DNA of 64,000 bases from Candidatus Bathyarchaeota archaeon (GTDB taxonomy: Archaea; Thermoproteota; Bathyarchaeia; 40CM-2-53-6). Made by a program: the position numbers and the translations under genes. The notes under the pieces are model-generated. The model was given only the letters and a program-made list of their open reading frames with translations. It was not told where the DNA came from and did not search any database. The first letter of the stretch is position 1. Each line of letters begins with the position of its first letter. The DNA is taken from contig CAWHWX010000012.1 of the NCBI GenBank assembly GCA_963833125.1, positions 1 to 64,000 of the forward strand, written 5' to 3'. This document shows, one piece after another, positions 1,784 to 57,679 of the stretch.

Positions 1784-1840
1784 CATAGCGGGGAAGTCTA
1801 CTGCAGAGCTTCCCCCTCTCCCTATTTTTGGGATGAGCAA

Positions 1841-2869
1841 TTGAGCTTAAAGAGTTACATCGTCACGCGTGCCCTCCTCACAATTCCGACTGTGTTCCTT
1901 CTAGTAACGATAGTTTTTCTCATCGTGCGGGTGCTTCCAGGGGATCCGGTTCTCCTCCACTTCGGAAAGCAGGTCAATCCCACCGCCTTGGCCGCGGTCA
2001 GGCATTCGCTCGGCCTGGACGTCCCCATCTACGTCCAGTACTACAACTACATCATCGGTCTGTTTCATGGGAACTTGGGCATCGCCTTCTCGAACGAAGA
2101 GCCGGTCACCCCGCAGGTCCTCTCGGCTTTCCCGGCCACTCTGGAGCTCTCGATTGGTTCGATGATTGTGGCGGTGCTGGTGGGCGTGGTCCTGGGCGTC
2201 AGGTCTTCGAGGAAATACGGTTCGCTGGAGGACAAGATAATCAGGACCTTCGGCGCTGTCGTCTACTCCATTCCGGTCTTCTTCCTGGGTCTGATCTTCA
2301 TCGGCGTGTTCGCGATTGCTTTTCACATACTTCCCTCGGGCGGAAGGTATTCCCTTTTAATCCCGATCGGCGGGACCGTCTTCGGCGTGCACATCCAGAC
2401 GGGGCTGTACACCATTGATTCTCTTTTGGCAGGAAACTTGGGCGAGTTCGTCGACGCAGTGCGGCACTTGATACTTCCGTGCACTGCCCTCGGGCTTTAC
2501 ATCTCTGCCGTCTTCCTGAGGATAACCCGAAGCAACATGCTGGAAGCGCTCGGCCAGGAGTACGTCACCGCAGCCAGAGCGAGGGGGCTCAAAGAGAGGA
2601 CCGTCCTCTACAGCTACGGCCTCAGAAATGGCTTGCTTCCTGTGCTGACGATCATGGGCCTTGAGTTCGCCGGCCTGCTGGGAGGGGCCATATTGACCGA
2701 GACGACTTTCGCCTGGAATGGAATAGGGACCTATATAGTCACGGCCATCACCGACCGGGACTACATTGCAATTCAGGGCGCCGTGGTCTTCTTCGGAATT
2801 CTGGTTGCGCTTGTGAGCCTAGTGGTCGACATCCTGTACGCCTATCTCGACCCGAGGATAAGATACTAG
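1841..2869 (+). CDS. dppB: ABC peptide transporter permease
   Basis: PGDPV N-terminal motif and EAA loop (YVTAARARGL). Confidence 0.9.
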   Translation: MSLKSYIVTRALLTIPTVFLLVTIVFLIVRVLPGDPVLLHFGKQVNPTALAAVRHSLGLDVPIYVQYYNYIIGLFHGNLGIAFSNEEPVTPQVLSAFPATLELSIGSMIVAVLVGVVLGVRSSRKYGSLEDKIIRTFGAVVYSIPVFFLGLIFIGVFAIAFHILPSGGRYSLLIPIGGTVFGVHIQTGLYTIDSLLAGNLGEFVDAVRHLILPCTALGLYISAVFLRITRSNMLEALGQEYVTAARARGLKERTVLYSYGLRNGLLPVLTIMGLEFAGLLGGAILTETTFAWNGIGTYIVTAITDRDYIAIQGAVVFFGILVALVSLVVDILYAYLDPRIRY

Positions 2870-3757: not shown

Positions 3758-4726
3758 ATGACGCTACTCAAAGTCCAAGGACTGAACGTCAGCTACAAGA
3801 CCATGAAGGGAGAACTGAAGGCCGTCCAGGGGGTGGACTTCGAGCTCGAGGAGCAGGAGACTTTGGGTATCGTCGGAGAGTCTGCATGCGGTAAGTCAAC
3901 CCTCGGCCTTGCGCTCCTGAACCTCGTGCCTCCGCCGGGGAGGGTTACCGACGGCAGGATACTCCTCGAGGGAGAGGACATACTGTCCCTCGACAACGAG
4001 CGGCTGAGGCGGACGAGGGGGAAGGTGGTCTCGATGATCTTCCAAGACCCTATGACTTCTCTGAACCCGGTGAAGAAGATAGGGGAGCACTTCGTCGAGG
4101 CCATCAGGGCGCACAACCCCAGCGCCAGGCGAGGCGAGGCCCTGGAGAAGGCCGGGAAGATCTTGGGCGAACTTGGGATCTCTCCGGACAGGATGGCCGA
4201 CTACCCCCACCAGCTTAGCGGAGGCATGAAGCAGAGGATTATGATCGGTCTCAGCCTTATCCTCGATCCCAAGCTCCTGATTGCCGACGAGCCCACCACC
4301 TCCCTGGATGTGGTGATAGAGGCCCAGATTCTCGACCTGCTCCGCCAGCTAAAGTCCTCCCTCAAGCTGTCCATGATTTTGATCACGCATAATTTGGGGG
4401 TTGTCGCAGAAGTGGCAGATAAGATAGCAATAATGTACGGCGGGGAGATCTACGAGCTCGCAGAGACGAAGGCCATCTTCAAGAAGCCGCTCTTCCCCTA
4501 CACGCAGTTGCTCCTGAAGCTGGTTCCGAACATTGCTTCGGAGTCCACCTCGTTGGAGTGGATTCCAGGTTCGCCCCCGGACCTCTCTTATCCAATATCG
4601 GGGTGCAAGTTCGCGGCGCGATGCCCCTTCGTCTTCGACCGATGCAGGAAAGAACGGCCGAGCCTACGAGATATCGAACCAGGCCACAGGGCGGCCTGCC
4701 ACCTGTACGACGGCGGTCGAAAATGA
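3758..4726 (+). CDS. dppD: ABC peptide transporter ATP-binding protein
   Basis: Walker A GESACGKS, LSGGMKQR, DEPT, C-terminal Cys-rich oligopeptide-transporter domain. Confidence 0.92.
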   Translation: MTLLKVQGLNVSYKTMKGELKAVQGVDFELEEQETLGIVGESACGKSTLGLALLNLVPPPGRVTDGRILLEGEDILSLDNERLRRTRGKVVSMIFQDPMTSLNPVKKIGEHFVEAIRAHNPSARRGEALEKAGKILGELGISPDRMADYPHQLSGGMKQRIMIGLSLILDPKLLIADEPTTSLDVVIEAQILDLLRQLKSSLKLSMILITHNLGVVAEVADKIAIMYGGEIYELAETKAIFKKPLFPYTQLLLKLVPNIASESTSLEWIPGSPPDLSYPISGCKFAARCPFVFDRCRKERPSLRDIEPGHRAACHLYDGGRK

Positions 4727-5709
4727 GCGACCCTCTGCTTCTCTTCCAGGACGTCAAGATGCACTTCCCCGTAAGGAGGAGTTTCCTCGAGGGGCTGGTC
4801 GGGGCGGAGACGAAGTACGTCAGGGCAGTGGACGGCGTCTCCCTCGGCATCGAGGAGGGGGAGGTCTTTGTCCTCGTAGGCGAAAGCGGCAGCGGGAAGA
4901 CGACTCTCGGCAAGCTCAGCCTCCGGGTATACGTTCCTACGGCAGGGAACATTCTCTTCGACGGCCGGGCCATAACTGGGCTGAGCGGTGAAGCGCTCAA
5001 GAAGTTCAGGCGGACATCGCAAATGGTCTATCAGGACCCGATGGCAGCGCTCAATCCTAGGGTCAGAATCGGGGACGCTATAGCGGAGCCGTTGAAGTTT
5101 CACAGCATCGGAACTGAGGTAGAGCAGAGGGAGAGGGCCTTCAAGATGATGAGCCGCGTGGGCTTCGACCCCCCGGAGGAGATCTACTCCAGGTTCCCCC
5201 ATGAGCTGAGTGGAGGCCAGAGACAGAGGGTGGTGATTGCCCGAGCGTTGATCCTTAACCCGAAGTTCGTGGTGGCCGACGAGCCGGTGGCCATGCTCGA
5301 CGTCTCCATTAGGGCCCAGATTCTGAAGCTACTCCTGGATCTCAAGAGGGAGATGAATCTCACCCTGCTCATCATCACTCACGACATCGCAATCGCGAAG
5401 TATTTCGCTGACCGCATAGGAATAATGTACCTGGGCAAGATTGTGGAAAGGGCCGACAGGGAACGCATGTTCAGGAATCCGATGCACCCCTACACCCAAG
5501 CGCTCTTCTCCTCCGTCCCAGTCCCTGATCCCGAAGCGGCGAAAACCAGGATGATAATACAGGGGGAGATTCCCAGCGCCATGAACCCGCCCACCGGTTG
5601 CGTCTTCCACCCAAGATGCCCACGCGTTTTCGGCAAGTGTTCAGCTGAAGTGCCGCCGCTACTGGAGTATGAACCAGGACATTATGTTGCCTGCCACCTG
5701 TACTCCTAA
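4723..5709 (+). CDS. dppF: ABC peptide transporter ATP-binding protein
   Basis: Start MSDPLL overlaps the dppD stop (ATGA). GESGSGKT, LSGGQRQR, HPYT, GCVFHPRC. Confidence 0.92.
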   Translation: MSDPLLLFQDVKMHFPVRRSFLEGLVGAETKYVRAVDGVSLGIEEGEVFVLVGESGSGKTTLGKLSLRVYVPTAGNILFDGRAITGLSGEALKKFRRTSQMVYQDPMAALNPRVRIGDAIAEPLKFHSIGTEVEQRERAFKMMSRVGFDPPEEIYSRFPHELSGGQRQRVVIARALILNPKFVVADEPVAMLDVSIRAQILKLLLDLKREMNLTLLIITHDIAIAKYFADRIGIMYLGKIVERADRERMFRNPMHPYTQALFSSVPVPDPEAAKTRMIIQGEIPSAMNPPTGCVFHPRCPRVFGKCSAEVPPLLEYEPGHYVACHLYS

Positions 5710-16982: not shown

Positions 16983-17243
16983 TGTATTCGCCTTTAGTTA
17001 TGGCGAACCGTCGGAGACGTGATAAACGTTGTGTGGCGCGGTCTAACCTTCATGGGAGTTTCATCTTAACCTGACCTGTATAAATCGACATCCTGGTGTC
17101 AACGGGTTTTGACTAACAAATGCTTGCTTAACTCAACCTAAAGGAATCGTAGGCCCACTTCTTAGCGGCTTTCAGCTTACCCGTTTTGCGGCAATCGTTA
17201 TGTGATTCTTAGGCTGACGGTTAATGTCTATTGAGGACTTATC

Positions 17244-18146
17244 ATGGAACCTGCCTTAATCCCCGGTGTTCCCGCGCCTGTAATCGTAGAGAGACCTGGT
17301 GGTAAACCCGTACTGATTAGCCCTGCAGAAGTCAATGGGGCACATGACTACGCAGTAATCGGGTACATACTCGTACTGCTAATGTCTATTCCTTGGTTCA
17401 TCATTGTCCTAACCATAGGGGCTTTTGGAGCACTTGCGTCTCCTTACCTTCCGTTCCCAATCATCCTGCCCCCCGCGTTGCCTGCATGGTTGGCCGCGAT
17501 CCCATTCATAGGCCCAATTCTGACACTGCTCACTTTCCCCGGGGTCGGCTTACCCGCGTCATGGTTCGTGTATCTAGGGTTCGGCGCCGGAGGTTTACTC
17601 ATAGGAATCATCTTTCTGCTTCTAGTCTACTTCCAAACGATTCGAGCAATTAGCAAAGGTCGCTATGCCAGAGCCCGCGGCGGGACATTATTCTGGGCAA
17701 TTCTATTCATAATCCCTGTCTTCGCAATTCTTGTCAGCCCAACCGTATTCTATCCAGCAGTACTCCTCTTACTCCCAGCCTTCTTCTTCCTCATGGCCTA
17801 TGGCAGATTAGGAGAGGTAGTCGCGAAGTATGGCCCAGTCGCTGTTCTTGGAGAGGCTCTTCCGGGTATGGGGATTGCACCTTCACCACCACCTCCGCCT
17901 GTACAGGCCTTTGGTCCACCGATGTTCTCTGGTCCTCCAGGACCTGTCGGAATGGGCGGCCCGATGGGTGGTCCGATGATGCAGCCAATGATGCCACCAA
18001 CCGCTCCAAGCCCGCCACCTATGCCTGAGCCCCAAGCCACGACATCGAGGATGCCACAGTGCCCCACTTGCGGTAGAGACCTCTATTACGCTGCAAATCA
18101 TCGACGCTGGTACTGCCAAACGTGTGATGCCGGCGGACGATCCTAA
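17244..18146 (+). CDS. multi-TM protein with Pro/Met-rich linker and C-terminal Zn finger
   Basis: Hydrophobic helices, PPPPP tract, CPTCG...WYCQTC. Confidence 0.75.
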   Translation: MEPALIPGVPAPVIVERPGGKPVLISPAEVNGAHDYAVIGYILVLLMSIPWFIIVLTIGAFGALASPYLPFPIILPPALPAWLAAIPFIGPILTLLTFPGVGLPASWFVYLGFGAGGLLIGIIFLLLVYFQTIRAISKGRYARARGGTLFWAILFIIPVFAILVSPTVFYPAVLLLLPAFFFLMAYGRLGEVVAKYGPVAVLGEALPGMGIAPSPPPPPVQAFGPPMFSGPPGPVGMGGPMGGPMMQPMMPPTAPSPPPMPEPQATTSRMPQCPTCGRDLYYAANHRRWYCQTCDAGGRS

Positions 18147-36351: not shown

Positions 36352-36870
36352 ATGTTACTCGTCCCCACGATTATATGTGCTTCAACTACGCCAAGATGAC
36401 CCTAAGAAATGCACCGCCGCAAAACTAGTGAAGTTCAGACTTGCGAGGCCTCTCTACAGAGTTAGACAAGTACGACCTGAAACAGTCTAACGCTGAACCC
36501 GTTCGCCCAAATGTCCATGTTGAACAAGGATAGGGTTCAAGGCCTGAAACTACGGATTGGTCGCAATCGACTGCTCATGGGAGAGAATGCGAGACGACGT
36601 TCTCGGACCGGCTGCCGGGGCGAAACATCAGGCTTCCAACTTTGCTTGCCTCGAATCCTGTCAACTACGCAAAACCGAATAAGTTGTCATCACATAGAGG
36701 CCCTGGCAGCAAGCTTGTACATAATGGGTTTCCGAGAACAAGCCAGCAAATTACTCTCGCTCTTCAAATGGGGACCACATTTCCTCACACTAAACGCCCA
36801 ACCTCTCGAAGCATACTCCTCCGTAACAGATGAAGAACAACTGGTCAGAGTAGAGTCGGAATATTTCTGA
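36352..36870 (+). CDS. tsr3: 16S rRNA aminocarboxypropyltransferase (DUF367), frameshifted
   Basis: QDDPKKCTAAKL, IDCSW, LASNPVNYAKPNKLS, EALAASLYI, FKWGPHFLTLN. Confidence 0.88.
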
Positions 36871-36899
36871 ATTAGAGCCGAGCGGGTCTGGCTTAGTAT

Positions 36900-37154
36900 T
36901 TGAAGGTAATGAGTAAATACTCCACTATCCCTCGCTGGCTAGATTTCGTTATGGACAGAGCAATGGTCTTATCGGGATTATTCCTAGTTCTCGCGGGACT
37001 TACGGGGATAGTTTACGGTGCTGGAGTAAACCTTCAAGGAATGCTAGCTAGAGGTGCCACCGACTATTCCTTCATCACTGCCTACATAACCGAATGGACA
37101 CTCATCCTGTTTGCGGGACTTACCCTGACTATCGCGGGTATCAAAAGAAAATGA
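36900..37154 (+). CDS. small membrane protein
   Basis: Two TM helices. Confidence 0.55.
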   Translation: MKVMSKYSTIPRWLDFVMDRAMVLSGLFLVLAGLTGIVYGAGVNLQGMLARGATDYSFITAYITEWTLILFAGLTLTIAGIKRK

Positions 37155-37554
37155 ACGCCCATTGCCTCTAATCTGGAAGATTCCGCAAGAAATACGCAGT
37201 TTTCTTAGATAACAATGGTATTGGAATGCATTGTGTAATTCATTTCTATACTTGCAGGTTTTCTGCTACTAACCTCACGGATACACCAGAAAAACCGCAC
37301 ACGCGCGGGTGTGATAACTGACGAAAAACCGGGGTTGATCCTCGTTATCAACCCAAATTCGACGTTAGAATTATGAAGTTCGTGGTCGATGAAGTCACAA
37401 ATCCCGGACTTCTAACGAAGACCACCTACTGCTTGTTGTCAAAATCCGTGTTCGTATGTTAGAATGCAATAGCACAACGATAGCAATAGCCTCCTCGGGC
37501 GGTGTAACCGATTATATTCGGCTTTGCGAGGTCAACCTTCGAGTTTGATGTTTC

Positions 37555-37947
37555 ATGTTGACTTATGATTGGCGGAAGTTTCTTGTGGGGATTGCACTCG
37601 TTACTTTTACAATCACGATGGCAACTAACTTGGCTTATGGGCAAAATCCTCCTCCCACCATAAGCTACTCCCCTGCGACTCCCTTAGCAAATCAGCCCAT
37701 ACAATTCGATTACTCTGGCGGAGGTCCAACTAGTCTCGCTATCTATGCTGGACGTAACTGCCCAGGGATGGAAGGCAGCAGTTCTAGTTCTCCCATTGTA
37801 ACTCTAACTGTCCCAAAGGGAGGAACCGTAACTCTACTGGGAGGGTTGCCTGCGGGGTCGTATAGTGCGGGAACCATTTCGACAGTCTTCAACTACCGAG
37901 GATATGTTGTCTGCAACAATTTCTCAGTGATTAATTCCGGTGGCTGA
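37555..37947 (+). CDS. secreted hypothetical protein
   Basis: Signal peptide (…NLAYG) and a PKD/Ig-like stretch. Confidence 0.55.
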   Translation: MLTYDWRKFLVGIALVTFTITMATNLAYGQNPPPTISYSPATPLANQPIQFDYSGGGPTSLAIYAGRNCPGMEGSSSSSPIVTLTVPKGGTVTLLGGLPAGSYSAGTISTVFNYRGYVVCNNFSVINSGG

Positions 37948-37968
37948 GCTAGTCTTCAAGAACTGAAA

Positions 37969-38022
37969 CGGGTTGGCGTGTTGGCCGTAACCCACCTTCT
38001 GTTTTAGGCGACATTCATCTAA
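37969..38022 (-). repeat. att site: duplicated 3' 54 nt of the RNase P RNA gene
   Basis: CGGGTTGGCGTGTTGGCCGTAACCCACCTTCTGTTTTAGGCGACATTCATCTAA, identical to 47427..47480. Confidence 0.95.
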
Positions 38023-38906
38023 ACAGCCCGAATAATCCTCTCGTAAGCACTACAGCTTATGGAAATCCTCTCAATCCACTTGAGCTTCTTGACGAATTCA
38101 GTAAATTCTGTAGAGTGGACTTGCAACTTGCAAAAGAGACTATTGAGCGTTACAAAGGAATAATGAGATGCTTCTCGAAATCGTTTCCAAATGATCTAAG
38201 GCAAGCGACAGACTGATGATCTTCGAAACTATATGCTTGAAAAGTACTCTCGATTCTCCACCCAACAGCAGAGCTAACATAATTTGTGGTTTTCGTTGCT
38301 TCTACAGAAGCTTTCTTGGTTCAACAATAACCGACAGTTTTCGTTATCCACGAGCACCCTTCACTCCTAAAGAAGCTCCAAGCACTGAAAACATGAGACT
38401 CTTCTATAGTGCTATCACAAAACCAGTACACAAACTCCTATTCCTTTTGCTTGCAACTAGCGGATTACGTGAGATGGAAATTCTATCTTTACGCTACGAA
38501 GACTTGGACATATCCAGAAGAGCAATCATTCCCAAGAATCATGAAGGTTCAACCAAGAAAGTCGTGGCGCTCTTTCTACTCTCCCGAATGCGATCAACTG
38601 CTAAAAGATCATGTAGCATCGAAAGAAACTTGGCAAGGAAATGAGCAACTCTTCAATCTGCTACCTCAAGGCCTTCGTCACGTCTTCGAGAAGGCGAGCA
38701 AACAGTGTGGATTCAAAATTAAGCCTAAAGATTTGCGAGATTGGTTCGCAGACAGGATGGGCAGTCTAGGCCTTCAAGACAGGTATGTGGACGCGTTTTA
38801 AGGTAGAGCCCCTAAGTCGATCCTAGCTAGACATTACTCTGACTTCAGAGTTGACAAGATGAAAATCGTCTACGAATCAGCCAACCTACGCCTATTTGAA
38901 AGATGA
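37969..38906 (+). pseudogene. tyrosine integrase C-terminal part, int(C) (frameshifts, in-frame TAA at 38799-38801)
   Basis: The frame is open from the att site (…DIHLNSP…LLDEFSKFCRVDLQLAKETIERY), then LATSGLREMEIL, KDLRDWF, DAF*GRAPKSILARHY. Confidence 0.85.
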
Positions 38907-38982
38907 ACGCAATTGACCAATCTACGCTGGCTCAAATGGGCCACCGTCGAAGCATTTCCGAGACAAAGGATTACAGGTTCAG

Positions 38983-39279
38983 ATGCGGTCGATAAAGCTG
39001 GGCAATGTTGCGATAGATGGTGAAGTACAAGGAAAAGGCTGGAAGATGGCCTTGGAGCTGAAGACTCTGCGGGACGATATTACACGCGGGATAGGACAAC
39101 TTGCTGAAGCATTAGCCTACGGGTACAATTGTGCGGCGATGGTTACGACCCAACGTAATGCAAAGGACATTGATTCTAAGGTCTTCGACAAGCTGGGCTT
39201 AATTCTACTAGGTGTGAATGCGAAAGGAGAAGTCAAACTATTTTATCCGACTTATGCGGTTGCGAGTTCGATGGAATAG
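38983..39279 (+). CDS. small PD-(D/E)XK nuclease-like protein (N-terminus probably frameshifted from ~38904)
   Basis: IDGEV…ALELKT…GIGQL. Confidence 0.6.
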   Translation: MRSIKLGNVAIDGEVQGKGWKMALELKTLRDDITRGIGQLAEALAYGYNCAAMVTTQRNAKDIDSKVFDKLGLILLGVNAKGEVKLFYPTYAVASSME

Positions 39280-39533
39280 CTGTCATTTACCCTTCGTAAC
39301 TGGTCGTAATAAACAAAATTCGATGAGGTAACGTCAACTTGTCGGTTGCTGGATTTTACATTTTGGGTGTAAAGATTCGGTTGCTGGACTCCTACAACCG
39401 CTTGTCTCTGTAGACTCCTTCATACCTCTAGTTCTCATATACTTCGGTTATCACGGTTGGTGCTCGAAAGAAATCCGGTTTCCTTCAATGATGAAGGGGT
39501 TAGATTTGCTTTGAACTGTTAGCCCAACTGATC

Positions 39534-39932
39534 TTGCCAGCAATCAGTTCGTTGTTGGCAGTATTCATTGGGTTCTGGCTTGAGCACCGATCTGTAAAGC
39601 AAATGAATCAAGAACGTTCAAACACATACCTCAAAGGACTCACCAACGAAATTTCAGAAGCAATTGATCTATTGAAACCCAAGCCTCATCCGTTACAACT
39701 CTTGCCGGTTGATCTCTGGCAATCAGCCGTCAATTCTGGCGATGTTGCGCTTTTCCGTTATGAAGCAAGAGAGGACTTACGAAAAGCCTACTTCGCTATA
39801 ATGAAGTGCAACTATCAATTCACTAGAATAAAGGAATTGGAGAAAAATTCTGGATTGAAGCGGATACATCTGAAAAAGGGCAGCGGATTTCAGCGGCTTG
39901 GCGTGCAGAAACAGACCAAGCTGATTACATGA
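39534..39932 (+). CDS. hypothetical membrane-anchored protein
   Basis: N-terminal TM followed by a helical domain. Confidence 0.5.
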   Translation: MPAISSLLAVFIGFWLEHRSVKQMNQERSNTYLKGLTNEISEAIDLLKPKPHPLQLLPVDLWQSAVNSGDVALFRYEAREDLRKAYFAIMKCNYQFTRIKELEKNSGLKRIHLKKGSGFQRLGVQKQTKLIT

Positions 39933-40045
39933 CCGAAAGCACTCTCTCCTACCTACTGGGTCTTTCTAAGAAATCATGGTTCATTGAGGCAATCAGGTAC
40001 AAGCCCGACTAAGTTCGATTTATCAATATTTGCTATTTTTTCGTC

Positions 40046-40435
40046 CTATGGAGGTCCGAATTTGCTTCCTGCTTCGGAAATCAGCTGATTAAGAACGAAT
40101 ATCGTATTTTCGATAACGATTTCTACTGGCTTCTGCGGGTAACCTTGGAAATGAGCAACCACTAGAGCGCTTGGAACCGGAACTGGATTAACATGTGGGG
40201 GAACTGGTGGGAAAGTCGAGCTAGTGATGACGATTGTTCCTGACATATTAACTGCGTCGTGTAGACTCACCAGATAATGATAATCCACTGATGCTCGATG
40301 TGCTTCGATGTGTCGAACCTTCAAGAGTACTGATGCGTCCTTATTTCGCCCAATTGTTCGGCGCTTCTTTTGAGACCACGCCAAGAAATCTATGGCCTTT
40401 TCATTCTTCGTGGCTTTTGCTTTTGACTCAAACAT
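40046..40435 (-). CDS. hypothetical protein
   Basis: 129-aa ORF, may extend upstream. Confidence 0.4.
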   Translation of the reverse strand: MFESKAKATKNEKAIDFLAWSQKKRRTIGRNKDASVLLKVRHIEAHRASVDYHYLVSLHDAVNMSGTIVITSSTFPPVPPHVNPVPVPSALVVAHFQGYPQKPVEIVIENTIFVLNQLISEAGSKFGPP

Positions 40436-40663
40436 TTCGCTATTTTCAGATAATCATTCGTACTTATGCCGTGGCGAATATTTTTTCGCATAATCGTACA
40501 GAAGATGCTCATTGGAACCGTATAGGGCTGAAACGCAAGCAGATGTGTAGTATCGGAACTCAGCTGATGTGGGAGAAACCGACTGTAGCTTGTTGAAGAA
40601 AGTTTTGGCTTCCTCCAATCTTCTTTCGCGCGCTCATGAAGTAATGCTTTGAGATTGGCTCAT

Positions 40664-41203
40664 TTAGGTATTTGCATCGGCTTTACCTGTAAAAGAATTT
40701 TGAATAGTGGCCTTGACCAGTGCTGGTGGAGTTACAACTTGTGTATGGTCTAGTCTGAGCCTCTGTTCTATCTCTTTTTTCTCGTTTATGAAGTGCCGTT
40801 TATCTAGGCTAACGAAAAATGCAATCTGATTCGCCGTGAGGTATTCGGCTATGTCTCTGTCCGATTCCTTCTGGGGAAAGTTCGGGAAGTTCGGTTTCTG
40901 GTCGAGCCGTGCTTCATCTAATCTTGCTTTTCCCAAGTCAGCAGGGGTTCGAGGCAACTTAGGAAGACGCAGTTCTTCAATGAGGCATAACGCATTTTGA
41001 GCTTTAGTCAGTCTGGACGGATCACTAAGGAGTTTGCGAAGTTCATCCTCGACTTGGAGAGAAGTTACAATTTCGATATTCCCAGTTCGATGAGACTCAA
41101 CTAGCGTCTTAACTGCTAACTCGATTTCTTTCTGGTCAGTTCTTTCAACCGAAGAGTCGTATAGCCCCATCCAAACCGAGGTATCAAAATATGCAGTAAT
41201 CAA
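40664..41203 (-). CDS. PIN domain protein
   Basis: YFDTSVW, QVEDEL, SDRDI, FVSLDKRHF acidic tetrad. Confidence 0.8.
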   Translation of the reverse strand: MITAYFDTSVWMGLYDSSVERTDQKEIELAVKTLVESHRTGNIEIVTSLQVEDELRKLLSDPSRLTKAQNALCLIEELRLPKLPRTPADLGKARLDEARLDQKPNFPNFPQKESDRDIAEYLTANQIAFFVSLDKRHFINEKKEIEQRLRLDHTQVVTPPALVKATIQNSFTGKADANT

Positions 41204-41411
41204 TTGATCGATCCTTCTTGGTGGCGTTTTGGATTAGGGTTAACCACTTATTTTCTCCTTCGACTTTGATTCCTGCCGCCTCCGCGGATGTTTTGCCGTC
41301 TAAGGCCATGTGTGATTTTTACGAAATTGTGGTAAATTCTCATTCCAGCCAAAATTGGCGTGTCAGCTTCTCGACCGTTTGAATACATGCTGGTGCTTGT
41401 ACAAACCTTAG

Positions 41412-41936
41412 TTATCCTGAGCGTTTAACTCGGATATTTCTGGCAAGGTTTTCTCTACAGAATTTCACAGCTCTGTTGTCAAGCAACCGTCCAAAATCAG
41501 CGTAAAACACTTGGTCTATTCTTGAGCCATAACATTCCACCACTCTCACTGTTGGCATAACATGCCGTTTTTTGATTTCGCTCTCTATTGCGTTAGCTCG
41601 ATTACACCCGTCAACAATCAAACGTAAGTTCGCACTTATGTGAAAAGCAGAAAGCAATAACATGTTTCTATCGGATTTAAGTTTAGTCGGTTCTTCCTTC
41701 GCGTGTTTGCGTAACGAATAGTTCACGCTCCCGGCATCATCATAATTTAAGCCGCCCTTATACCAAGGTAAGAAACAATTCTTGCGGAAACGCGCCCAAT
41801 CTCTCTTATTCCGCATGAATCCTTCTCTAACTCTAATGTCATCGCTCCACAGATCGGGTCGCCATAAGACATCTATTTCGTTGCTGTGCTCTAGAAACTG
41901 TGCTGATTCTACCTCAGGCCAACCTGCCCATGACAT
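41412..41936 (-). CDS. hypothetical protein, ParB/Srx-like motif
   Basis: LIVDGCNRA resembles IxDGxHR. Confidence 0.5.
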   Translation of the reverse strand: MSWAGWPEVESAQFLEHSNEIDVLWRPDLWSDDIRVREGFMRNKRDWARFRKNCFLPWYKGGLNYDDAGSVNYSLRKHAKEEPTKLKSDRNMLLLSAFHISANLRLIVDGCNRANAIESEIKKRHVMPTVRVVECYGSRIDQVFYADFGRLLDNRAVKFCRENLARNIRVKRSG

Positions 41937-42232
41937 GTGTTCAGCCAGCTGTTCTCAGGCTGTCCACTGCGCTTCACCTTGTAGCGGCGCACCTCCGCTC
42001 GCGTTAAGGAGTGGATTCATGGAAGATTGAACGGTCATCGCGGATAAAGCCCTACATATATTATGTAGGAAAAGGCTCAATAAAGGACCTTCATAAAGGC
42101 GATAAAGGAACGAAATCAAGAAACGAATTAATTACTATTCCCATAACGGAAGGAATCTAGCCAAGTCCATGCGTGCTACGGGTGCTCGCAGGGTTCATCG
42201 TGACATTTACCGCTGTACGGGTCCCATCTTGC

Positions 42233-42436
42233 TCAAAGTTTCTTATCTGCAATAATCCACTGGTTTTGTCTGCCCACTCTTTTCATTTTCACGAGGTTTT
42301 CCGCCATAAGCTTGTAGAGTTGTAGCTGCGCGGTGTTCCAAGATACTCCCAATTCTTTCGCTACCATCTCAGTGGTTACAGGCCAATCCTGCTTTCGCAG
42401 ATATTCTAGGGTTTTCTTGCTCAGTTCCTTAGCCAT
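42233..42436 (-). CDS. small winged-helix DNA-binding protein
   Basis: VTTEMVAKELGVSWNTAQLQLYKL...RVGRQNQW. Confidence 0.8.
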   Translation of the reverse strand: MAKELSKKTLEYLRKQDWPVTTEMVAKELGVSWNTAQLQLYKLMAENLVKMKRVGRQNQWIIADKKL

Positions 42437-42544
42437 CGAAACTCGAACTATGACACATCATATGATATAGTTTAATTCAGTGCCCCAAAGTAAAAGTATG
42501 ACGAATCATAAGTTTGACCATAGTTACTGCAGAAGACCAGCCTC

Positions 42545-42794
42545 ATGCCAAGTCATCGCGTGCACAGAGCGATTACAACTCGCAGTCTTAGGAAAGCCGC
42601 ATGACAAGGTGCATAAAGCGATTGATTATCCGTATAAGTTTCTAGGCCCAAAACACAGAATTTTGTTTCACGACCCCATCACAGCAGTCATCGTGGCAAG
42701 AACAGCGTCAAAAGAGAAAGGGGCAGGCCTAGCAGCGGTCTTGCATATTGCTACGGACTGGCTCTTTCTCTTTGCAGGAGTGCAAAACTCTTAG
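42545..42794 (+). CDS. small His-rich putative metal-binding protein (frameshift near 42575)
   Basis: MPSHRVHRAI joins LGKPHDKVHKAID…KHRILFHD…LHIATD. Confidence 0.55.
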
Positions 42795-42841
42795 ACAGCT
42801 TGATCGTGCTGCGAAAACGGTTCCATTTCTGATGATTCTAA

Positions 42842-43363
42842 ATGGCTGATGACTTCGTGAATTTCTATGAGCTTCTAGGAGTTACTCCTCAAGCAACAAT
42901 TGACGAAATTAAGACTCAGCGTTACAGGATGCTAATTGCCTATCATCCTGATCATAACAAGAGTTCGTTCGCAAACGAGATAACGAAACGCATCAACGCA
43001 GGCTGGGAAATCCTGTCAGATCCTATTAGACGACAGGAATATGATGAAACGCTGAAATGCGAACGCCTATCAGACAAAAGCATAGCCCCTCAACATTCCA
43101 CCGCGAAGCCTCGACATCGAGCATTACAGAGAAGGGTCAGGAAAGAAACACAACAGAGCAGTGAACGATCCACACGCTGTTCTCCTGTTAATAACAAAAG
43201 AAAGAGCGAGCGGGAGGCGATCGATTGGATGGAACGTTTGAAGAAAGGCATGACAGAAGGAGCGAAAATGGCCTTTGTAGGTTTGAAAATAGCCTTTATC
43301 GTTCTGATTGTTTTCATAGCATTGCTGAATTTCTTGGGCGGCGGAAGAAGGAGATCGTACTAG
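42842..43363 (+). CDS. DnaJ (J-domain) protein with C-terminal TM
   Basis: NFYELLGV, YHPD, INAGWEILSDPIRRQEYD. Confidence 0.88.
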   Translation: MADDFVNFYELLGVTPQATIDEIKTQRYRMLIAYHPDHNKSSFANEITKRINAGWEILSDPIRRQEYDETLKCERLSDKSIAPQHSTAKPRHRALQRRVRKETQQSSERSTRCSPVNNKRKSEREAIDWMERLKKGMTEGAKMAFVGLKIAFIVLIVFIALLNFLGGGRRRSY

Positions 43364-43455
43364 AAGACGTACAATCAAATGCCATTTCCGATCATCAGCC
43401 CAATGCCAAATACTTTAGAAAATATGATCCAAATGAACATCGGGAGGTAACTAAT

Positions 43456-44733
43456 TTGAGAGCGCGCCTTCTCTTCTTGATGTTAATTCTTTCGTTGGGT
43501 GCTCTTTACTTCGTCGTTCCTGTTTATGCTCAGATTGTAACCGTTTCTAATTTGCACTATTCCTCTACTTCCGTCCTCGGAAAGCAAGCAACAGTCAGCT
43601 TCACGGTTAACTATGGGGGTGCAAGTGCAGGTGACTATCTTATCATATCAGTCTGGGATGTTAATGCCAATAACTATGCTTCAGGTTCCACAATTAACTC
43701 CTACCCTGATTCCTGCCCTCAGATAACCGGCACTTACAGCTGGGCTGCAGGTTGCGCTTATGCACTATCAAATCTGCAAGCGGCGCCAGATTACACGACA
43801 GAGACTGTAAGCTTCGCTTTAGCGATGAATTCCGTTGGCACTTATCAATTCAGCCCATTAGCGGCTATAGAAGATACGAGTTTTAATGTTCTGGCTTCTT
43901 CCCCTACCACTCAAAACGAGTTCTCAATTTCCGTATTAGACAAGTTCACTTTGACTGTGAGTCTTCCTAGCCAAGTTCCCTTGACTCTCGACGGTGTTCA
44001 GCAGGGTGCTGGATCAACTAACTTGCAATTGTCACCTGGCGCGCATGAGATGTCGGTTCCGGATATAGTTCAACTCGATTCTACCTCAAGGCTGAAGTTC
44101 AATGGCTGGTCTGATGGCTCAAATCAGACTATGAGAACCTTTGATTTGGAAAGCGATACGGAAATAGTAGCAACGTATGTCACTCAATACTTCGTGACCT
44201 CAACTACTGATTCGACACTGCAATCAGGGTGGTACGACCAAGGAACCGTTCTGCAATTCACGGTAGACAACAGGCCGTTAGTTAACAAATATCGCCTGTT
44301 CGTAGGCGGATTCGACGGATGGTACAACATGGGTCAGTTGAGAGCAAACTCGCCTACTACTTCGCTCACAATTGACGGCCCTATAAATCTAAGTGACAGA
44401 TGGAATTATTTACCGTATTTTCCTCCCGTGTTAATTGTTGTAATTGTCGCTGCAATTCTTCTCCTTGCAAGGCGAGGAACTATTCCTGTCCCCCGCTTAC
44501 CTGAGCTGAAAATGCTAGGTCGTAAGCGTTCGAGGAAACACGTTAGAAGCAGTAAACCAAAGATTGAAACAATCACTCCTGAGCCGGAAAGACAAGTCGC
44601 TTCGACTGCTAAAATCAGGAAAGCAGAATCCTCTCAACAAACTAAGATTGGAATGTACTGTAAGGAGTGTGGGGCCAAGATTCATAGAGATAGTATTTTC
44701 TGCGAGGAATGTGGAAGCACTGTCAAAGAATAA
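43456..44733 (+). CDS. cell-surface protein with TM and C-terminal zinc ribbon
   Basis: Signal peptide after GGAGGT RBS, FNGWSDG repeats, YCKECG...FCEECG. Confidence 0.75.
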   Translation: MRARLLFLMLILSLGALYFVVPVYAQIVTVSNLHYSSTSVLGKQATVSFTVNYGGASAGDYLIISVWDVNANNYASGSTINSYPDSCPQITGTYSWAAGCAYALSNLQAAPDYTTETVSFALAMNSVGTYQFSPLAAIEDTSFNVLASSPTTQNEFSISVLDKFTLTVSLPSQVPLTLDGVQQGAGSTNLQLSPGAHEMSVPDIVQLDSTSRLKFNGWSDGSNQTMRTFDLESDTEIVATYVTQYFVTSTTDSTLQSGWYDQGTVLQFTVDNRPLVNKYRLFVGGFDGWYNMGQLRANSPTTSLTIDGPINLSDRWNYLPYFPPVLIVVIVAAILLLARRGTIPVPRLPELKMLGRKRSRKHVRSSKPKIETITPEPERQVASTAKIRKAESSQQTKIGMYCKECGAKIHRDSIFCEECGSTVKE

Positions 44734-45589
44734 GCGGACCAAATTCTGCCGACGTTGCCGAACAGAAATACCAAGAACGAGCAAGTTCTGCAAGATTTGC
44801 GGAGCACAACAGGTTCAAGTAGAGCATTCCACCGCGGAAGAAAAAAAGGAGCCGCAAGTACATCCATCCCGGCTTAGCGCATCTACGCCGAGATTTGGCA
44901 GAAGAACGCAATTGGGCTTGGTAATGATCCTTGTCGCGATCATGCTTGTTTGGTTTTCCATGTCAGGAGTGTGGTATACCGAAAAATTCAGTGGTACATA
45001 CTCGCAGATCAGCGGCATAAACGGGACAGATGACTATCTTAACCAGTATTGCGACCAAATCCCCACGGGGTCGTTTGCATACCCCGGCCAAAATTGTAAT
45101 CCATATGGTCAAGAGTGCCTTCCTTGGCCACCTTATTCTTGTGTAGGCATAGCAGTTCCGTTCAGTAACGCAAACACTCTCATGTTTAACGGACTCATTC
45201 TTGCAATTCTCACTTTCATCTTCCTTGTATTAGGTACACTCTGGCCGACAATCCTGACAATCAAAATCAATATGCTTGCTATGGCAGTTTGCGGAATTCT
45301 AGGAAGCGCACTTGTCTTAATTGCACCGCTCTACTTGTCCGCAGCTCTTCGTTCCAGTGGATTTCAGTGGAGTGGATTAGAGAATACGGGGTGGTTAACA
45401 GCCTTGATTGCCTGTATCTGCTTTGTTACCGCGACAATTACATCTTTCCAGGGACTGAAGAAGGTCGTTCCGCTTGGGAATATCTCATTCGATCCCAAAG
45501 GGATCTTATGTATTGTTCTGTATATCGTGATTGTTCTTCCATTACTACTGCTGCTATTGTTCCAGTTATTCTTACTTATTTTCTATTAG
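44711..45589 (+). CDS. zinc-ribbon multi-pass membrane protein
   Basis: FCRRC...FCKICG followed by several TMs. Confidence 0.7.
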   Translation: MEALSKNKRTKFCRRCRTEIPRTSKFCKICGAQQVQVEHSTAEEKKEPQVHPSRLSASTPRFGRRTQLGLVMILVAIMLVWFSMSGVWYTEKFSGTYSQISGINGTDDYLNQYCDQIPTGSFAYPGQNCNPYGQECLPWPPYSCVGIAVPFSNANTLMFNGLILAILTFIFLVLGTLWPTILTIKINMLAMAVCGILGSALVLIAPLYLSAALRSSGFQWSGLENTGWLTALIACICFVTATITSFQGLKKVVPLGNISFDPKGILCIVLYIVIVLPLLLLLLFQLFLLIFY

Positions 45590-46119
45590 CCTTCTGCCCA
45601 ACTCAACCTTAACGCAGTTAGCCGAATCAACTTATGAGGCGCAATGTCGCCATTATGACATCTTTGACGTTTACGAAATTGCCCGAGGATACAACTCTAA
45701 ACGGGCGCATACATGAAAATCCCCTTGGTAACTAGGAAGCACAAGGTGATTATGAAAGAGATAAAACTCGTCCTCAATACTAATCCTCTTTCTTGGTGCC
45801 ATTCAGCCTCAAGAATAGGCTCTAGGCGATCTCGGAGCACAAGATGACATTTTACGATTGATTTACCGAACCTACGACAGATTGCGAGGATTGCAGAGTT
45901 CGGAGTTCAGCGCGAAATTGCCCATTGCCCTCATTTCCTAATTACGAGTGAACATTGAGTTCTAGTGTACGGCCACCAGATAATTACTAAGATGGAGGCC
46001 TATCGGAATAGAGATAGAAGAAAAAAGGGAAAGGAAGGTAATACCATTGTCTATAATGGATATATCATGTCTGTATAGGTATAGAACCAATCTCTGTAGG
46101 CGTTTACGGCTTCACTGAA

Positions 46120-46641
46120 TTAGGGAAGCTCCGCCCACAAGGCCTGCTGTACTCTGTGTTCTGAATCTCTGTCTCTTGTCAGTACCTGCGGTGGAATCAT
46201 AACCGCGTTGATATGTTCTTGAATCAACAACGGTTGTACATGAGTCGGAATAGGTGCTGTAATCAACAGCAATTTGCATGGTGCAGTCTGATATGATTCG
46301 TATCTTGTTAGAATGTACAGCTTAGTCCTGGTTGTATTTGGCGGCTGCCCCCAGTTCTTTGCCTCTATTACAACGACTATTTGAGAATCAATACTAACTA
46401 TGAAATCAGGTGTATGTGACTCAGGATCATGCGTGTTTGCTCTTAGCCAGAGTAAGTCAACGATTGGCCCTTCTCTTGTAAAGTACCGAGTTGCATCTCT
46501 AACCGCTGTTGCCTTTTCAGGTTTCGCATAATCTGTCACAGAATATTTGGTTGCAAAGTAATATTGCAATAATGGCCAAAGCATTTTTTCTAATATTTCA
46601 CCTTTCTCTTGAACATCTAACTGCTTCATACTCTTTCTCAC
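46120..46641 (-). CDS. PD-(D/E)XK restriction-endonuclease-like protein
   Basis: TPDFIV…VVIEAKNW. Confidence 0.7.
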   Translation of the reverse strand: MRKSMKQLDVQEKGEILEKMLWPLLQYYFATKYSVTDYAKPEKATAVRDATRYFTREGPIVDLLWLRANTHDPESHTPDFIVSIDSQIVVVIEAKNWGQPPNTTRTKLYILTRYESYQTAPCKLLLITAPIPTHVQPLLIQEHINAVMIPPQVLTRDRDSEHRVQQALWAELP

Positions 46642-46841
46642 CCCCTTGTTATTGTAGCCGCGACAAGGAGTTACGATAATTCTTGCGGTCAGAGCTCAAA
46701 CAAATGTGCGCTGCCGCTTGCACAACAATGTAATCGGGACGGCTGCTACCCTAGTATAGGGTGGAAGTTGCATATAAATCTATCGCTATTATCTAGTTTA
46801 AGTATCTAACCTTAAAATCTAGTCTGCACTACACGGTTGTT

Positions 46842-47113
46842 ATGTCGAAACCGAACATTGAGCACCTCATACTCTACGAGCCATTACATAGGTTGCCGAA
46901 AGATGGCATTAGACGCAGAACAACAAAATATGACAAAGTATTGGCAGACCGAAAAAAGTGCCCAGAAAACTCGTCTTCAACGATGAAGAAAAAGCAACTA
47001 ATGTCTACGTAGCTCTAAGAGTGCGAATCAGAAGGGACGGTGAAACTCTCCAAGTTAGGAAAAGAGGCTTAGAAGTCTACGTATTTGCGCCACTGCGGTA
47101 TGAAGGCGGCTAG
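46842..47113 (+). CDS. small basic hypothetical protein (frameshifted)
   Basis: MSKPNIEHL…TKYDKVL joins …VRKRGLEVYV. Confidence 0.4.
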
Positions 47114-47209
47114 ATTATCAGCAGCTAGGATAAGTCACGGAATGAAACCGGCCAAGATAGGTCACAGTTTCAGGGCAAAGGGCATCTCTACAAGGCGGAG
47201 ATATGAGTA

Positions 47210-47480
47210 ATGCGAAAGAAGCTAACCCTTCGTGTTGACAGCGATCTTGTTCAGCAAGCGAAAGCTCTAGGAATTAACCTAAGTCGGTTAACTGAGAAGG
47301 CAATTGTGGCTTCCATCGGAAACCGTACGTACATGCACGTACAGAACGACATTAGCAGGATGGTTCACATAGAAATGCAACCAACTCAAAATGAGTCGAA
47401 GTCAGTTAATGAGTTAGATAATGAGTCGGGTTGGCGTGTTGGCCGTAACCCACCTTCTGTTTTAGGCGACATTCATCTAA
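47210..47480 (+). CDS. integrase N-terminal part, int(N), with RHH (CcdA-like) DNA-binding domain
   Basis: MRKKLTLRVDSDLVQQAKALGINLSRLTEKAI reads into the att repeat in the same frame as int(C). Confidence 0.75.
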
Positions 47481-47735
47481 TCGGGATACCCGCACCTCCG
47501 GCGGGAGGTCATTGGCGCCTATTATCCCTTTCACGACGTGGGCGGGCATTTCACCCTTACCTCCAGCCTCATCAACGCAAGCGCATCATCTTCCGCGGCT
47601 AGCGGAGGTTTCTTTCTGCGCCCTGACCCGACCTCTCAGTCGGCATCTCACGATGCCACGCTTCCGCCACGTGGATGGAGTTTCCTCAAGCCCATCATAC
47701 ACCGGGCCCGGAGTCGCTCACCAACTCGCCAACCC
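47428..47735 (-). ncRNA. rnpB: RNase P RNA
   Basis: On the minus strand: P1 GGGTTGGCG/CGCCAACCC, CR-I GAGGAAACTCC, CR-V AACAGAAGGTGGGTTA. ~308 nt, with TTTAT ~25 nt upstream. Confidence 0.92.
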
Positions 47736-47845
47736 ACCCAACTATCGACCCAACGCCATAAACAAGGATTACGGAATTCTGCATGAAATCGAACGTCGTG
47801 GAAAGAGGAAAAAGAAAGAAAAAAAGAAACAGGGAGAGTGGGGCT

Positions 47846-48397
47846 TTACTTCTTCGATCGCATCGCGAGAATGTAACCGATGCCACCGAGTGTAAATCCG
47901 ATTAAGGCTAGAAGGATAAGGTAGGCTATTGGTTGCGAGTAGTATTGGAGTACGTGTACGTGCACTTGGCCTGTTGTCCATCCTTGTCCGCCAGCGCTGA
48001 CTGGTTGCATGCCTGCGCCCCCAAGGTAGCCTCCTATCATAGTCAGGATAGCAGCGCCAGCTACACCGATGTTCCCGAGGACTAGGTGTGCCCACGCGAG
48101 CCCCTTCACCGCTCCAGTGTATGTCTTGCCGAGTACTGTTTCAATGTAGAAATAGAATAGTGAGGTGACAGCCATGGCGACAACGCCGACAATAAGGTAT
48201 GTCAGATACCCCATGATGAACCATTCTCCAGCCTCACCGCCAGCGATCACGTGTCCCACGCCTACTGGATATAGGCCCATCTGGTCGCCGAAAGCACCAA
48301 GGAATGTAACGAAGGCTGCTATAGCACCTTGGAACATTGCTGCGTAAAGGAAGTACCCCGCCATTTTGCTTGTTTTGCCTTTGAGTTCCATTTTCAT
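47846..48397 (-). CDS. four-TM membrane protein
   Basis: Hydrophobic helices including LAWAHLVLGNIG. Confidence 0.7.
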   Translation of the reverse strand: MKMELKGKTSKMAGYFLYAAMFQGAIAAFVTFLGAFGDQMGLYPVGVGHVIAGGEAGEWFIMGYLTYLIVGVVAMAVTSLFYFYIETVLGKTYTGAVKGLAWAHLVLGNIGVAGAAILTMIGGYLGGAGMQPVSAGGQGWTTGQVHVHVLQYYSQPIAYLILLALIGFTLGGIGYILAMRSKK

Positions 48398-48697
48398 TCG
48401 CTAAAATTAGGCAAATACAATGAATTCGATTTATGTTTCTTGTATATGTTTTCCATAGATTATAGTGTATGAAGAAATCCTTCTGACCCACATGAACAGT
48501 CTTGCGAAGCAGGTCGAACTCCACGTCTACTGCACGCGTACTGACCCAAACGTGAACCTTCAATCTGAAGGAGAGCAATGACCAAGAGGCAACAGAATCT
48601 AGGGGTGGGTGGTGCAGGAAGTCCGGCGAGGATTCGCTTCGTTGCGCTTTCCTTAAGTTCTCACTTAATAGTGCGCTTGCCCAAAAAGGGTTTAGCC

Positions 48698-52719: not shown

Positions 52720-54269
<1,550 letters not shown>

Positions 54270-54445
54270 TAGTAAACTTCGAACGGACTGGAATGCAAAT
54301 GAGTTATGACTGTAAGCCTAACCGTCCGATAATGCGGCCGCTGAGGAAGCTCAGTGGCTAAGGGTGTAGTGGTCATCCGCTAGAATGATCATGATGAACA
54401 CCGTGCATAGGCCTCTAACGTTAGACGAGTGTGGGTTCCATAGTA

Positions 54446-57497
<3,052 letters not shown>

Positions 57498-57679
57498 GAA
57501 AATGGAATCCACCGTCTGATAACGCAATCCGGAGGCCTATGCACGGTGCGAATCAAACACCAAACTATATTCAATTTGATTCGCTCTCTTCAGGTAGCGG
57601 AGCCTCTGAAGAGCTGAACGAGTAGCTCACGCAATTCTATGCGTGACGTTGTGAAGCAGGTCGTTGGGAGCGCGTTTGT

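Follow-up and report, generated by a model that had tools for sequence, protein, structure and literature searches.

The stretch of DNA analysed here (the window) comprises 64,000 nucleotides of a genome labelled Candidatus Bathyarchaeota archaeon (contig CAWHWX010000012.1 of assembly GCA_963833125.1, positions 1 to 64,000). Positions 37969-47480 of this window very probably represent a decayed cryptic element, site-specifically integrated into the 3' end of rnpB, the gene encoding the RNase P RNA, via an attachment site (attP) located inside a split integrase gene of the type known from Sulfolobus spindle-shaped viruses (SSV). Sequence comparisons support the assignment of this putative integrase to the SSV ("suicidal") type, in which attP lies inside the int open reading frame (ORF) and the N- and C-terminal parts, Int(N) and Int(C), end up at opposite ends of the element. 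The features that carry this interpretation are the following, G004 being a genome of the same genus:

37969..38022, no strand: distal copy of the attachment site (att), which repeats the final 54 nt of rnpB away from the gene (exact repeat, sole second copy in the genome; int frame open through the copy, 81 codons)
38023..38906, plus strand: Int(C), C-terminal part of an SSV-type tyrosine integrase (SAM-like and catalytic domains), a pseudogene (tblastn against the intact G004 integrase)
47210..47426, plus strand: Int(N), N-terminal ribbon-helix-helix (RHH) part of the split integrase (Pfam CcdA-type RHH, 1.1e-7, residues 2-38)
47427..47480, no strand: att copy on the rnpB side, serving as the working 3' end of the gene (repeat and RF00373 alignment)
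47427..47735, minus strand: rnpB, intact, sole full copy in the assembly (RF00373 at 47434-47729; P1 extension from pairing and covariation)

A preliminary description of the region had proposed that the last 54 nt of rnpB are duplicated exactly, that the two copies bracket some 9.4 kb and that rnpB is left intact at 47428..47735, and these points all hold. Positions 37969-38022 and 47427-47480 form a direct repeat identical at 54/54 nt, which is far beyond chance for an exact 54-mer within 64 kb; the match widens to 59 nt at 97% identity (37964-38022 and 47422-47480), with a start-to-start distance of 9,458 nt. The 9,404 nt between the copies have a lower GC content than the flanks (0.42-0.46 versus 0.47-0.51). 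In the entire 3.07-Mb, 39-contig assembly, a metagenome-assembled genome (MAG; 87.8% complete, 7% estimated contamination), the 54-nt sequence occurs twice, once in a full rnpB and once as a 54-nt fragment. The archaeal RNase P model of Rfam (RF00373, RNaseP_arch), which had been suggested as a check on the gene, matches 47434-47729 on the minus strand with 178.1 bits (gathering score 84), and covers model positions 1-288 of 288 without truncation, as expected for a full-length archaeal RNase P RNA. No tRNA or tmRNA gene was detected in the 64-kb window by ARAGORN.

The repeat corresponds to the last 47 modelled nucleotides of rnpB plus seven more. In the RF00373 alignment it takes in the terminal helices with their 3' strands, together with a conserved stretch, ACAGAAGG..GGUUAC, which we take to be the region named CR-V. 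An alignment of six congeneric rnpB genes indicates that helix P1 continues past the Rfam model, the 5' GGGUUGGCG pairing with the 3' CGCCAACCC: 92.9% of the alignment cells pair in this extended P1, versus 21-48% with slid partners. Two pairs have changed on both sides; since 39 of 500 shuffles do likewise, the covariation lends modest support to the extension. Read this way, the whole 54 nt would lie inside rnpB and the gene would span about 47427-47735, in agreement with the extent given earlier. One P1 pair is altered on both strands in G004 (C-G to U-A), and pairing is therefore preserved. The att copies of G022, another member of the genus, have a G where the other five genomes have a C (rnpB L017, alignment A3 column 306), resulting in a G.G mismatch with the invariant P1 5' strand that may be the trace of an element-derived 3' end. 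By eye, att also contains an imperfect inverted repeat (GGGTTACGG / CGCCAACCC around CCAACA), a candidate core site.

The preliminary description had further placed a tyrosine integrase beside the distal repeat copy. An integrase is present there, but as a pseudogene and as the C-terminal part alone, the RHH-containing N-terminal part lying beside rnpB. Three frames just after the distal att jointly encode a tyrosine recombinase, and the intact 314-aa integrase of G004 aligns with them (tblastn) in four pieces (37968-38210, 38215-38250, 38237-38575 and 38529-38900) that are 86-92% identical and contain a single in-frame stop, at DAF*GR. Int(C) is thus a pseudogene damaged by three frameshifts and one stop. 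By itself the window piece matches PF00589 weakly (7e-4, 19.8 bits, below the cut-off), and we assign it to the PF16795-type family because of its identity to the G004 integrase. PF16795 (Archaeal phage integrase; cut-off 27) is matched by the integrases of G004 (37.9 bits), of the metagenomic element L149 (39.7 bits) and by the database protein P0004 (36.1 bits); that of G004 also matches PF00589 and PF13495, a SAM-like N-terminal domain. When compared to 50,697 virus records, the G004 integrase gave nine matches, all nine of them to SSV integrases (25-27% identity, best E 5e-6). Five residues are invariant in a 14-sequence alignment (R167, K196, R256, R279 and Y289 in G004 numbering), their catalytic assignment being by eye; the window retains the codons in a broken frame. 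No further integrase of the family was found in the window's assembly, at its 87.8% completeness. As Int(C) is broken and the assembly holds no other integrase of the family, we regard the window copy as a fossil, and the element is probably immobile.

At the opposite end, the ORF of Int(N) (47210-47602) stays in frame through the rnpB-side att and then runs antisense into rnpB up to position 47602. Relative to the repeat, Int(N) and Int(C) share one frame; that of Int(N) is open for 74 codons, and its start codon lies upstream of att. This arrangement recurs among 20 loci with mapped repeats (the window, G004 and 18 relatives from public genomes): in 17 of them, the frame in which int runs through the near att also has an ORF of 60-115 codons whose start codon lies upstream of the far copy, versus 1 of 40 control frames. 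Seven of ten Int(N) ORFs from relatives belong to the CcdA RHH family of Pfam and one to RHH_1, and the Int(N) of the window and of G004 match CcdA as well. In the 359-aa database homolog P0043, RHH and integrase are found in one unsplit protein, whose N-terminus aligns with the Int(N) of a relative (41% over 39 aa, E 2e-7). The left end of L149 (1-125) carries a second Int(N) end, 85% identical (60/71 nt), which continues in frame across att to an intact Int(C), and the distal att of G004 is preceded by a weaker Int(N)-like end (L044, about 17174-17260); in the window about 6 nt of such similarity precede the distal att. These second ends suggest tandem arrays of elements in which a full-length int is rebuilt at the junctions. 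The pNOB8-type or lambda-type (type II) arrangement, where int stays intact and attP lies outside the ORF, differs from what is seen here, with att in frame and the RHH part at the opposite end. A CcdA/CcdB toxin-antitoxin pair was considered, as the RHH domain matches PF07362, and rejected, the RHH being fused in frame to the integrase in relatives; neither CcdB nor another toxin family was detected among the scanned element ORFs of at least 80 aa.

Related insertions at rnpB, a clade of the integrases concerned and an empty site had all been suggested as checks, and each was found. Of the 23 genomes surveyed in the genus, 19 yielded an rnpB, and three carry the rnpB end twice: the window genome (G000), G004 and G022. 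The 61-nt repeats of G004 lie 15,682 nt apart on one 210-kb contig with an intact integration module; G022 has identical 54-mers on two contigs, one of them beside the window's flank gene. A full-length Int(N) abuts rnpB in five of the 19 genomes (G000, G004, G022, G013 and G002, the last with one TAG), and shorter remnants of Int(N) or Int(C) are seen at the rnpB of five more (G006, G010, G003, G017 and G012). The longer database proteins that match Int(N), 11 in number, all run RHH-att-rnpB, as readthroughs of the integrated state. Seven metagenome loci were matched, six of them with Int(N) beside rnpB; one of these is L149, a complete 6.6-kb metagenomic element with both att copies and an intact Int(C). 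The junction between att and Int(C) is spanned by P0004 and by G022. G004, G022 and L149 were occupied independently and with different cargo: in a blastn comparison, the window and G004 have in common only 37953-39344 (87%), 47174-47736 (80%) and one 124-nt patch at 71%.

The closest relative, G019 (84-93% nucleotide identity), provides the empty site. Its flank gene lies 78 nt from rnpB, the homolog of window positions 36608-37215 reaching rnpB directly after this 78-nt spacer, and the flanks of the window element are syntenic with relatives on both sides. The same comparison delimits one more feature:

37216..37968, no strand: additional stretch that separates the ancestral flank from the distal att, with an ORF at 37555-37947 (plus strand) (flank comparison with G019)

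The ORF of this segment encodes 130 aa with a hydrophobic N-terminal stretch by eye, and has a homolog on another contig in G019 (76% nucleotide identity). Two other loci of the survey deserve mention. In G018 (C2 52936-87225; L047, L048), the conserved flank gene and rnpB are about 33.7 kb apart, without an att duplicate or an integrase of the family; with no match to Int(N) or Int(C) in this stretch of about 33 kb, G018 was not counted as an occupied site, and the interval could be another type of island or a rearrangement at the same hotspot. In a sister genus, G044 (C29 6635-6665; L046) has a 31-nt, 94% match to the terminal strand of rnpB at 1.8 kb from rnpB, with neither Int(N) nor Int(C) detected in between.

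The integrases of the rnpB elements group together. In a tree of 97 integrases, six proteins (G004, P0004, P0001, P0002, P0005 and P0006) form one clade with an SH-aLRT support of 99 and a stem length of 0.89, and identities are at least 61% inside this group versus at most 45% outside. The N-terminus of P0004 bears the peptide encoded by the rnpB att. This tree was obtained with a quick method and a 60% fill rule, which drops most of the att-encoded N-terminal columns, and was rooted at the midpoint. Att sites were mapped at 61 related loci from contigs of one genome per species (repeat of 28 nt or more, with one of its copies where the integrase begins); 18 of the 61 could be mapped, of which 16 lie in tRNA genes (12 from the far copy and two from the near copy with ARAGORN, two with Rfam) and two are unresolved. 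None of the 18 has its att in rnpB, the partner copy of G004 lying beyond the flank covered. As the six-protein clade is nested among tRNA-targeting relatives, rnpB targeting is likely derived from tRNA-targeting ancestors, an ancestry that falls short of proof because the root is a midpoint root only. The idea that the rnpB att mimics a tRNA was discarded, the att peptides and DNA of tRNA-targeting relatives (GFEP-type) having no evident sequence likeness to it. The genomes carrying integrases of this family are labelled Bathyarchaeota, Hadarchaeota, Methanomethylicia, Nitrososphaerota and others.

We thus propose the following scenario. In the free element, a single ORF would have encoded the RHH domain, a linker, the att-encoded peptide (GWRVGRNPPSVLGDIHL), the SAM-like domain and the catalytic domain. 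The element would have entered by recombination between the attP inside this int gene and the last ~54 nt of the single-copy rnpB, presumably catalysed by its own integrase and with a crossover somewhere within att. Integration would have cut the int ORF at att, placing Int(N) next to rnpB and Int(C) 9.4 kb away, next to the displaced rnpB fragment. The att half brought by the element would substitute for the conserved ACAGAAGG region along with the P1 3' strand, leaving the ribozyme gene unbroken. With a crossover of the usual geometry, the end of the working rnpB would come from the element, and this supplied 3' end is presumably functional. Int(C) would have decayed after integration through its three frameshifts and stop, and the window copy would now be fixed, save for the action in trans of an integrase from a related element.

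Several observations weigh against this scenario. The segment 37216-37968, between the ancestral flank and the distal att, is not predicted by a single clean insertion, and may be the remnant of an older element inserted in tandem. In-frame Int(N) is missing from three of the 20 loci of the split-frame analysis. The window Int(N) gave no BLASTP alignment with P0043, so that the two are linked only via the Int(N) of a relative and the common Pfam family, and none of the 11 longer database proteins matching Int(N) is an unsplit RHH-att-integrase protein of the rnpB lineage. A scan of IMG/VR viral contigs with the G004 integrase as query gave five pattern matches and no relatives; no free viral or plasmid form was found. 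Reads from a free circle or an empty site of the window genome were not found, the sole usable soil run containing 9% of the sampled words. On 36400-48600 this nearly uninformative run yielded 11 short contigs, without joints and with neither junction bridged; one loose end falls exactly at 47427, and since its contig has four differences, it is probably the rnpB of a relative with a different flank. The assembly being a MAG (87.8% complete, 7% contamination), it may also lack an intact integrase copy. The length at which most database homologs are annotated, 280-300 aa, is close to that of a stand-alone XerA-like recombinase, and Int(C) might therefore function alone.

One alternative is a classical, unsplit integrase in rnpB, with Int(C) as the whole enzyme and the RHH ORF as a separate small gene (directionality factor, repressor or antitoxin) running into att. 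Besides the length of the homologs, the SAM-like and catalytic pair is that of archaeal XerA (NCBIfam XerA_Arch, 7e-22, below the cut-off, and XerA-like matches in the PDB), the RHH matches an antitoxin family, and the annotated start of P0001 is a GTG just upstream of its SAM-like domain. Yet a separate RHH gene would leave unexplained the stop-free frame common to both att copies at 17 loci, the linkers of Int(N) orthologs, whose length differences are whole codons, and the ORFs that are continuous across att in P0043 and at the left end of L149. In G004, moreover, no start codon occurs between the upstream stop and a GTG that already lies inside the SAM-like domain, and no CcdB-like partner is found among the element ORFs, which together make this alternative rather unlikely.

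An artefact of assembly or binning in the MAG, for instance a foreign contig piece joined via the common rnpB end, might be suspected from the estimated contamination and from the failure of the best public sequencing run to confirm the junctions. We consider it extremely improbable, as the same layout with two junctions exists in another species, on the 210-kb contig of G004, and in L149, the Int(N)-rnpB junction is crossed by eleven independent database proteins and the att-Int(C) junction by P0004 and G022, and synteny with relatives holds in both flanks. As to mobility, the att copies are still identical at 54/54 nt and Int(N) is intact, and rescue in trans has been modelled for Thermococcales elements in the part of the literature at hand (PMC8371274), so that the window element might still be moved by a related integrase in spite of its broken Int(C). 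The assembly, at 87.8% completeness, contains no second integrase of the family, and the soil run, with its low coverage, gave no joint or circle reads; that the element is still mobile thus seems quite doubtful. The interpretation of a decayed element integrated through a split integrase remains the one we prefer.

Between its ends the window element carries the following genes:

38983..39279, plus strand: small ORF, 98 aa, conserved beside Int(C) in the rnpB-targeting lineage (82% identity over 93 aa to the ORF after int in G004, L049)
39345..47173, no strand: variable cargo, unrelated to that of G004 (blastn)
42842-43363, plus strand: DnaJ-domain protein (Pfam DnaJ, 1.9e-16)
43225-44733 and 44564-45589, plus strand: two zinc-ribbon membrane proteins (weak Pfam zinc-ribbon matches)
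40664-41203, 41412-41936 and 46120-46641, minus strand: ORFs without family assignment

The 98-aa ORF has a counterpart in one of 80 related loci, as well as a 115-aa counterpart after int in L149, and matches no Pfam, NCBIfam or PADLOC family. The two zinc-ribbon proteins overlap in different frames, with the zinc ribbon C-terminal in the first and near the N-terminus in the second, and both have hydrophobic stretches that look membrane-spanning by eye. For the cargo ORFs of 179, 174 and 173 aa no NCBIfam or Pfam match was obtained, and PADLOC run on ten cargo ORFs returned two matches near 1e-3, taken as noise; motifs resembling PIN and PD-(D/E)xK were by-eye impressions and were dropped. 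No replication, capsid or defence gene was recognised in the window element with Pfam and PADLOC. The 15.7-kb element of G004 encodes a complete type I restriction-modification system (HsdR, HsdM, HsdS; L044 8891-14376, plus strand) along with a DUF2130 protein, and the cargo of L149 comprises a RelA/SpoT-domain protein (1396-2499, minus strand, 1.5e-18) and a SIR2_2 protein (4102-5142, plus strand, 7.9e-9), so that the cargo of these sister elements looks like defence genes. Outside the element, a 16S-23S rRNA operon is located at 52720-57498, 5 kb from rnpB, with no tRNA gene in its 175-nt spacer.

Taken as a whole, the data lead us to favour, with some reserve, a broader picture. A clade of self-splitting integrases headed by an RHH domain would have switched from tRNA genes to rnpB, and the 3' end of rnpB would have become a site where small islands repeatedly insert in one Bathyarchaeota-labelled genus, two of the three characterised elements having defence-type cargo (type I restriction-modification; RelA/SpoT and SIR2) and the window element no recognised defence gene. 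Occupied genomes would obtain the 3' strand of P1 and a conserved part of the ribozyme core from the element, the att being ribozyme core and integrase coding sequence at once, and some of the "intergenic" att sites of earlier archaeal surveys may in fact be unannotated RNA genes.

With such a system, the attB sites used by archaeal integrases come to include a ribozyme gene, and a likely target switch is seen within a family that otherwise uses tRNA genes. As att is translated in split integrases, the switch of target also altered the linker peptide of the protein, which offers a natural test of how specificity changes in these enzymes. The range of SSV-type "suicidal" integrases, which have been treated mostly in the context of hyperthermophiles, grows to include genomes labelled Bathyarchaeota, Hadarchaeota, Methanomethylicia and Nitrososphaerota, and an N-terminal RHH domain is identified in Int(N). 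Elements of this kind would be missed or mislabelled by surveys confined to tRNA genes or in which unannotated RNA genes count as "intergenic". With a 54-nt site conserved across the genus and a compact integration module, the system could serve as a genetic tool for a largely uncultured group.

Among known systems, genomic islands in tRNA and tmRNA genes (reportedly Williams 2002; Islander) offer a first comparison. Like them, the window element is inserted in the 3' part of a conserved, essential structured RNA gene, supplies a replacement end and has its far border marked by the displaced fragment. It does not qualify as a tRNA- or tmRNA-gene island, its repeat lying in rnpB, and it differs in that the target is a ribozyme of about 310 nt and the duplicated segment includes sequence of the catalytic core.

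The closest parallel is found in the SSV-type systems, SSV1 and SSV2 of Sulfolobus and pTN3 and pT26-2 of Thermococcales. In this "suicidal" architecture, according to the parts of the literature at hand (PMC8371274, PMC7253208), attP lies in the int ORF and the gene is split upon integration. The rnpB elements resemble these systems in their PF16795 catalytic domain, SSV integrases being the sole viral matches, in the attP inside the int ORF that leaves Int(N) and Int(C) at opposite ends, in the use of the end of a structured RNA gene that is regenerated, and in the size of att, 54-61 nt, compared with 40-60 bp in the range quoted for suicidal integrases in the available part of PMC8371274. 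They differ in their target, rnpB instead of a tRNA gene, in their host, a mesophile-type, soil-associated, Bathyarchaeota-labelled lineage instead of a hyperthermophile, and in an identity of just 25-27% between SSV integrases and that of the rnpB lineage. The CcdA-like RHH domain of Int(N) is a possible further difference, the terms "RHH" and "ribbon-helix-helix" being absent from the available part of PMC8371274, but it may not really set the rnpB elements apart from SSV, pTN3 and pT26-2. NitEve-E3 of Nitrososphaera evergladensis (Krupovic et al., 2019; PMC6563490), as described in the portion of that paper at hand, is likewise a cryptic integrated element of a non-thermophilic archaeon with an SSV1-like integrase split on integration, and is distinguished by an MCM helicase, the window element having no recognised replication gene.

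Housekeeping RNA genes other than tRNA genes are used as integration sites in bacteria. A presumed phage-inducible chromosomal island (PICI) splits rnpB itself in Clostridium novyi sensu lato (PMC8473940), and phage phiEf11 has its attB in ffs (PMC12540744); as far as the available parts of these sources go, the elements are bacterial and unrelated to those described here (a phage satellite and a siphovirus), with classical integrases and no hint of a split. In archaea, the targets counted in the accessible part of PMC6563490 (n=68) are tRNA genes (39), intergenic sites (15) and protein-coding genes (14). That text, which reports one SSV1-like split integrase from a thaumarchaeon, does not mention RNase P or rnpB, the details of the 15 intergenic sites being given in its Supplementary Table S2, where an rnpB target might appear under a different label. 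The available text of a 2021 review (Badel 2021; PMC8371274) and of a 2024 survey of archaeal proviruses (PMC11705971) likewise contains no mention of RNase P or rnpB, nor does that of Badel 2020 (PMC7253208) mention "RNase P". A 2026 study of provirus borders (PMC13626063) gives no match to "RNase" in the text at hand, which refers to noncoding RNA targets only as a class, and its target tables might likewise include rnpB under a different label. An archaeal element in rnpB was not found described in the literature searched, to the extent that these sources were available. The preliminary claim of a new target therefore stands for archaea within these searches and has to give way to the C. 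novyi PICI as a bacterial precedent. The principle itself, insertion at the 3' end of a structured, conserved RNA gene that is restored in the process, is well known; as far as our searches reach, what is new is its extension to rnpB in archaea and to this range of hosts.

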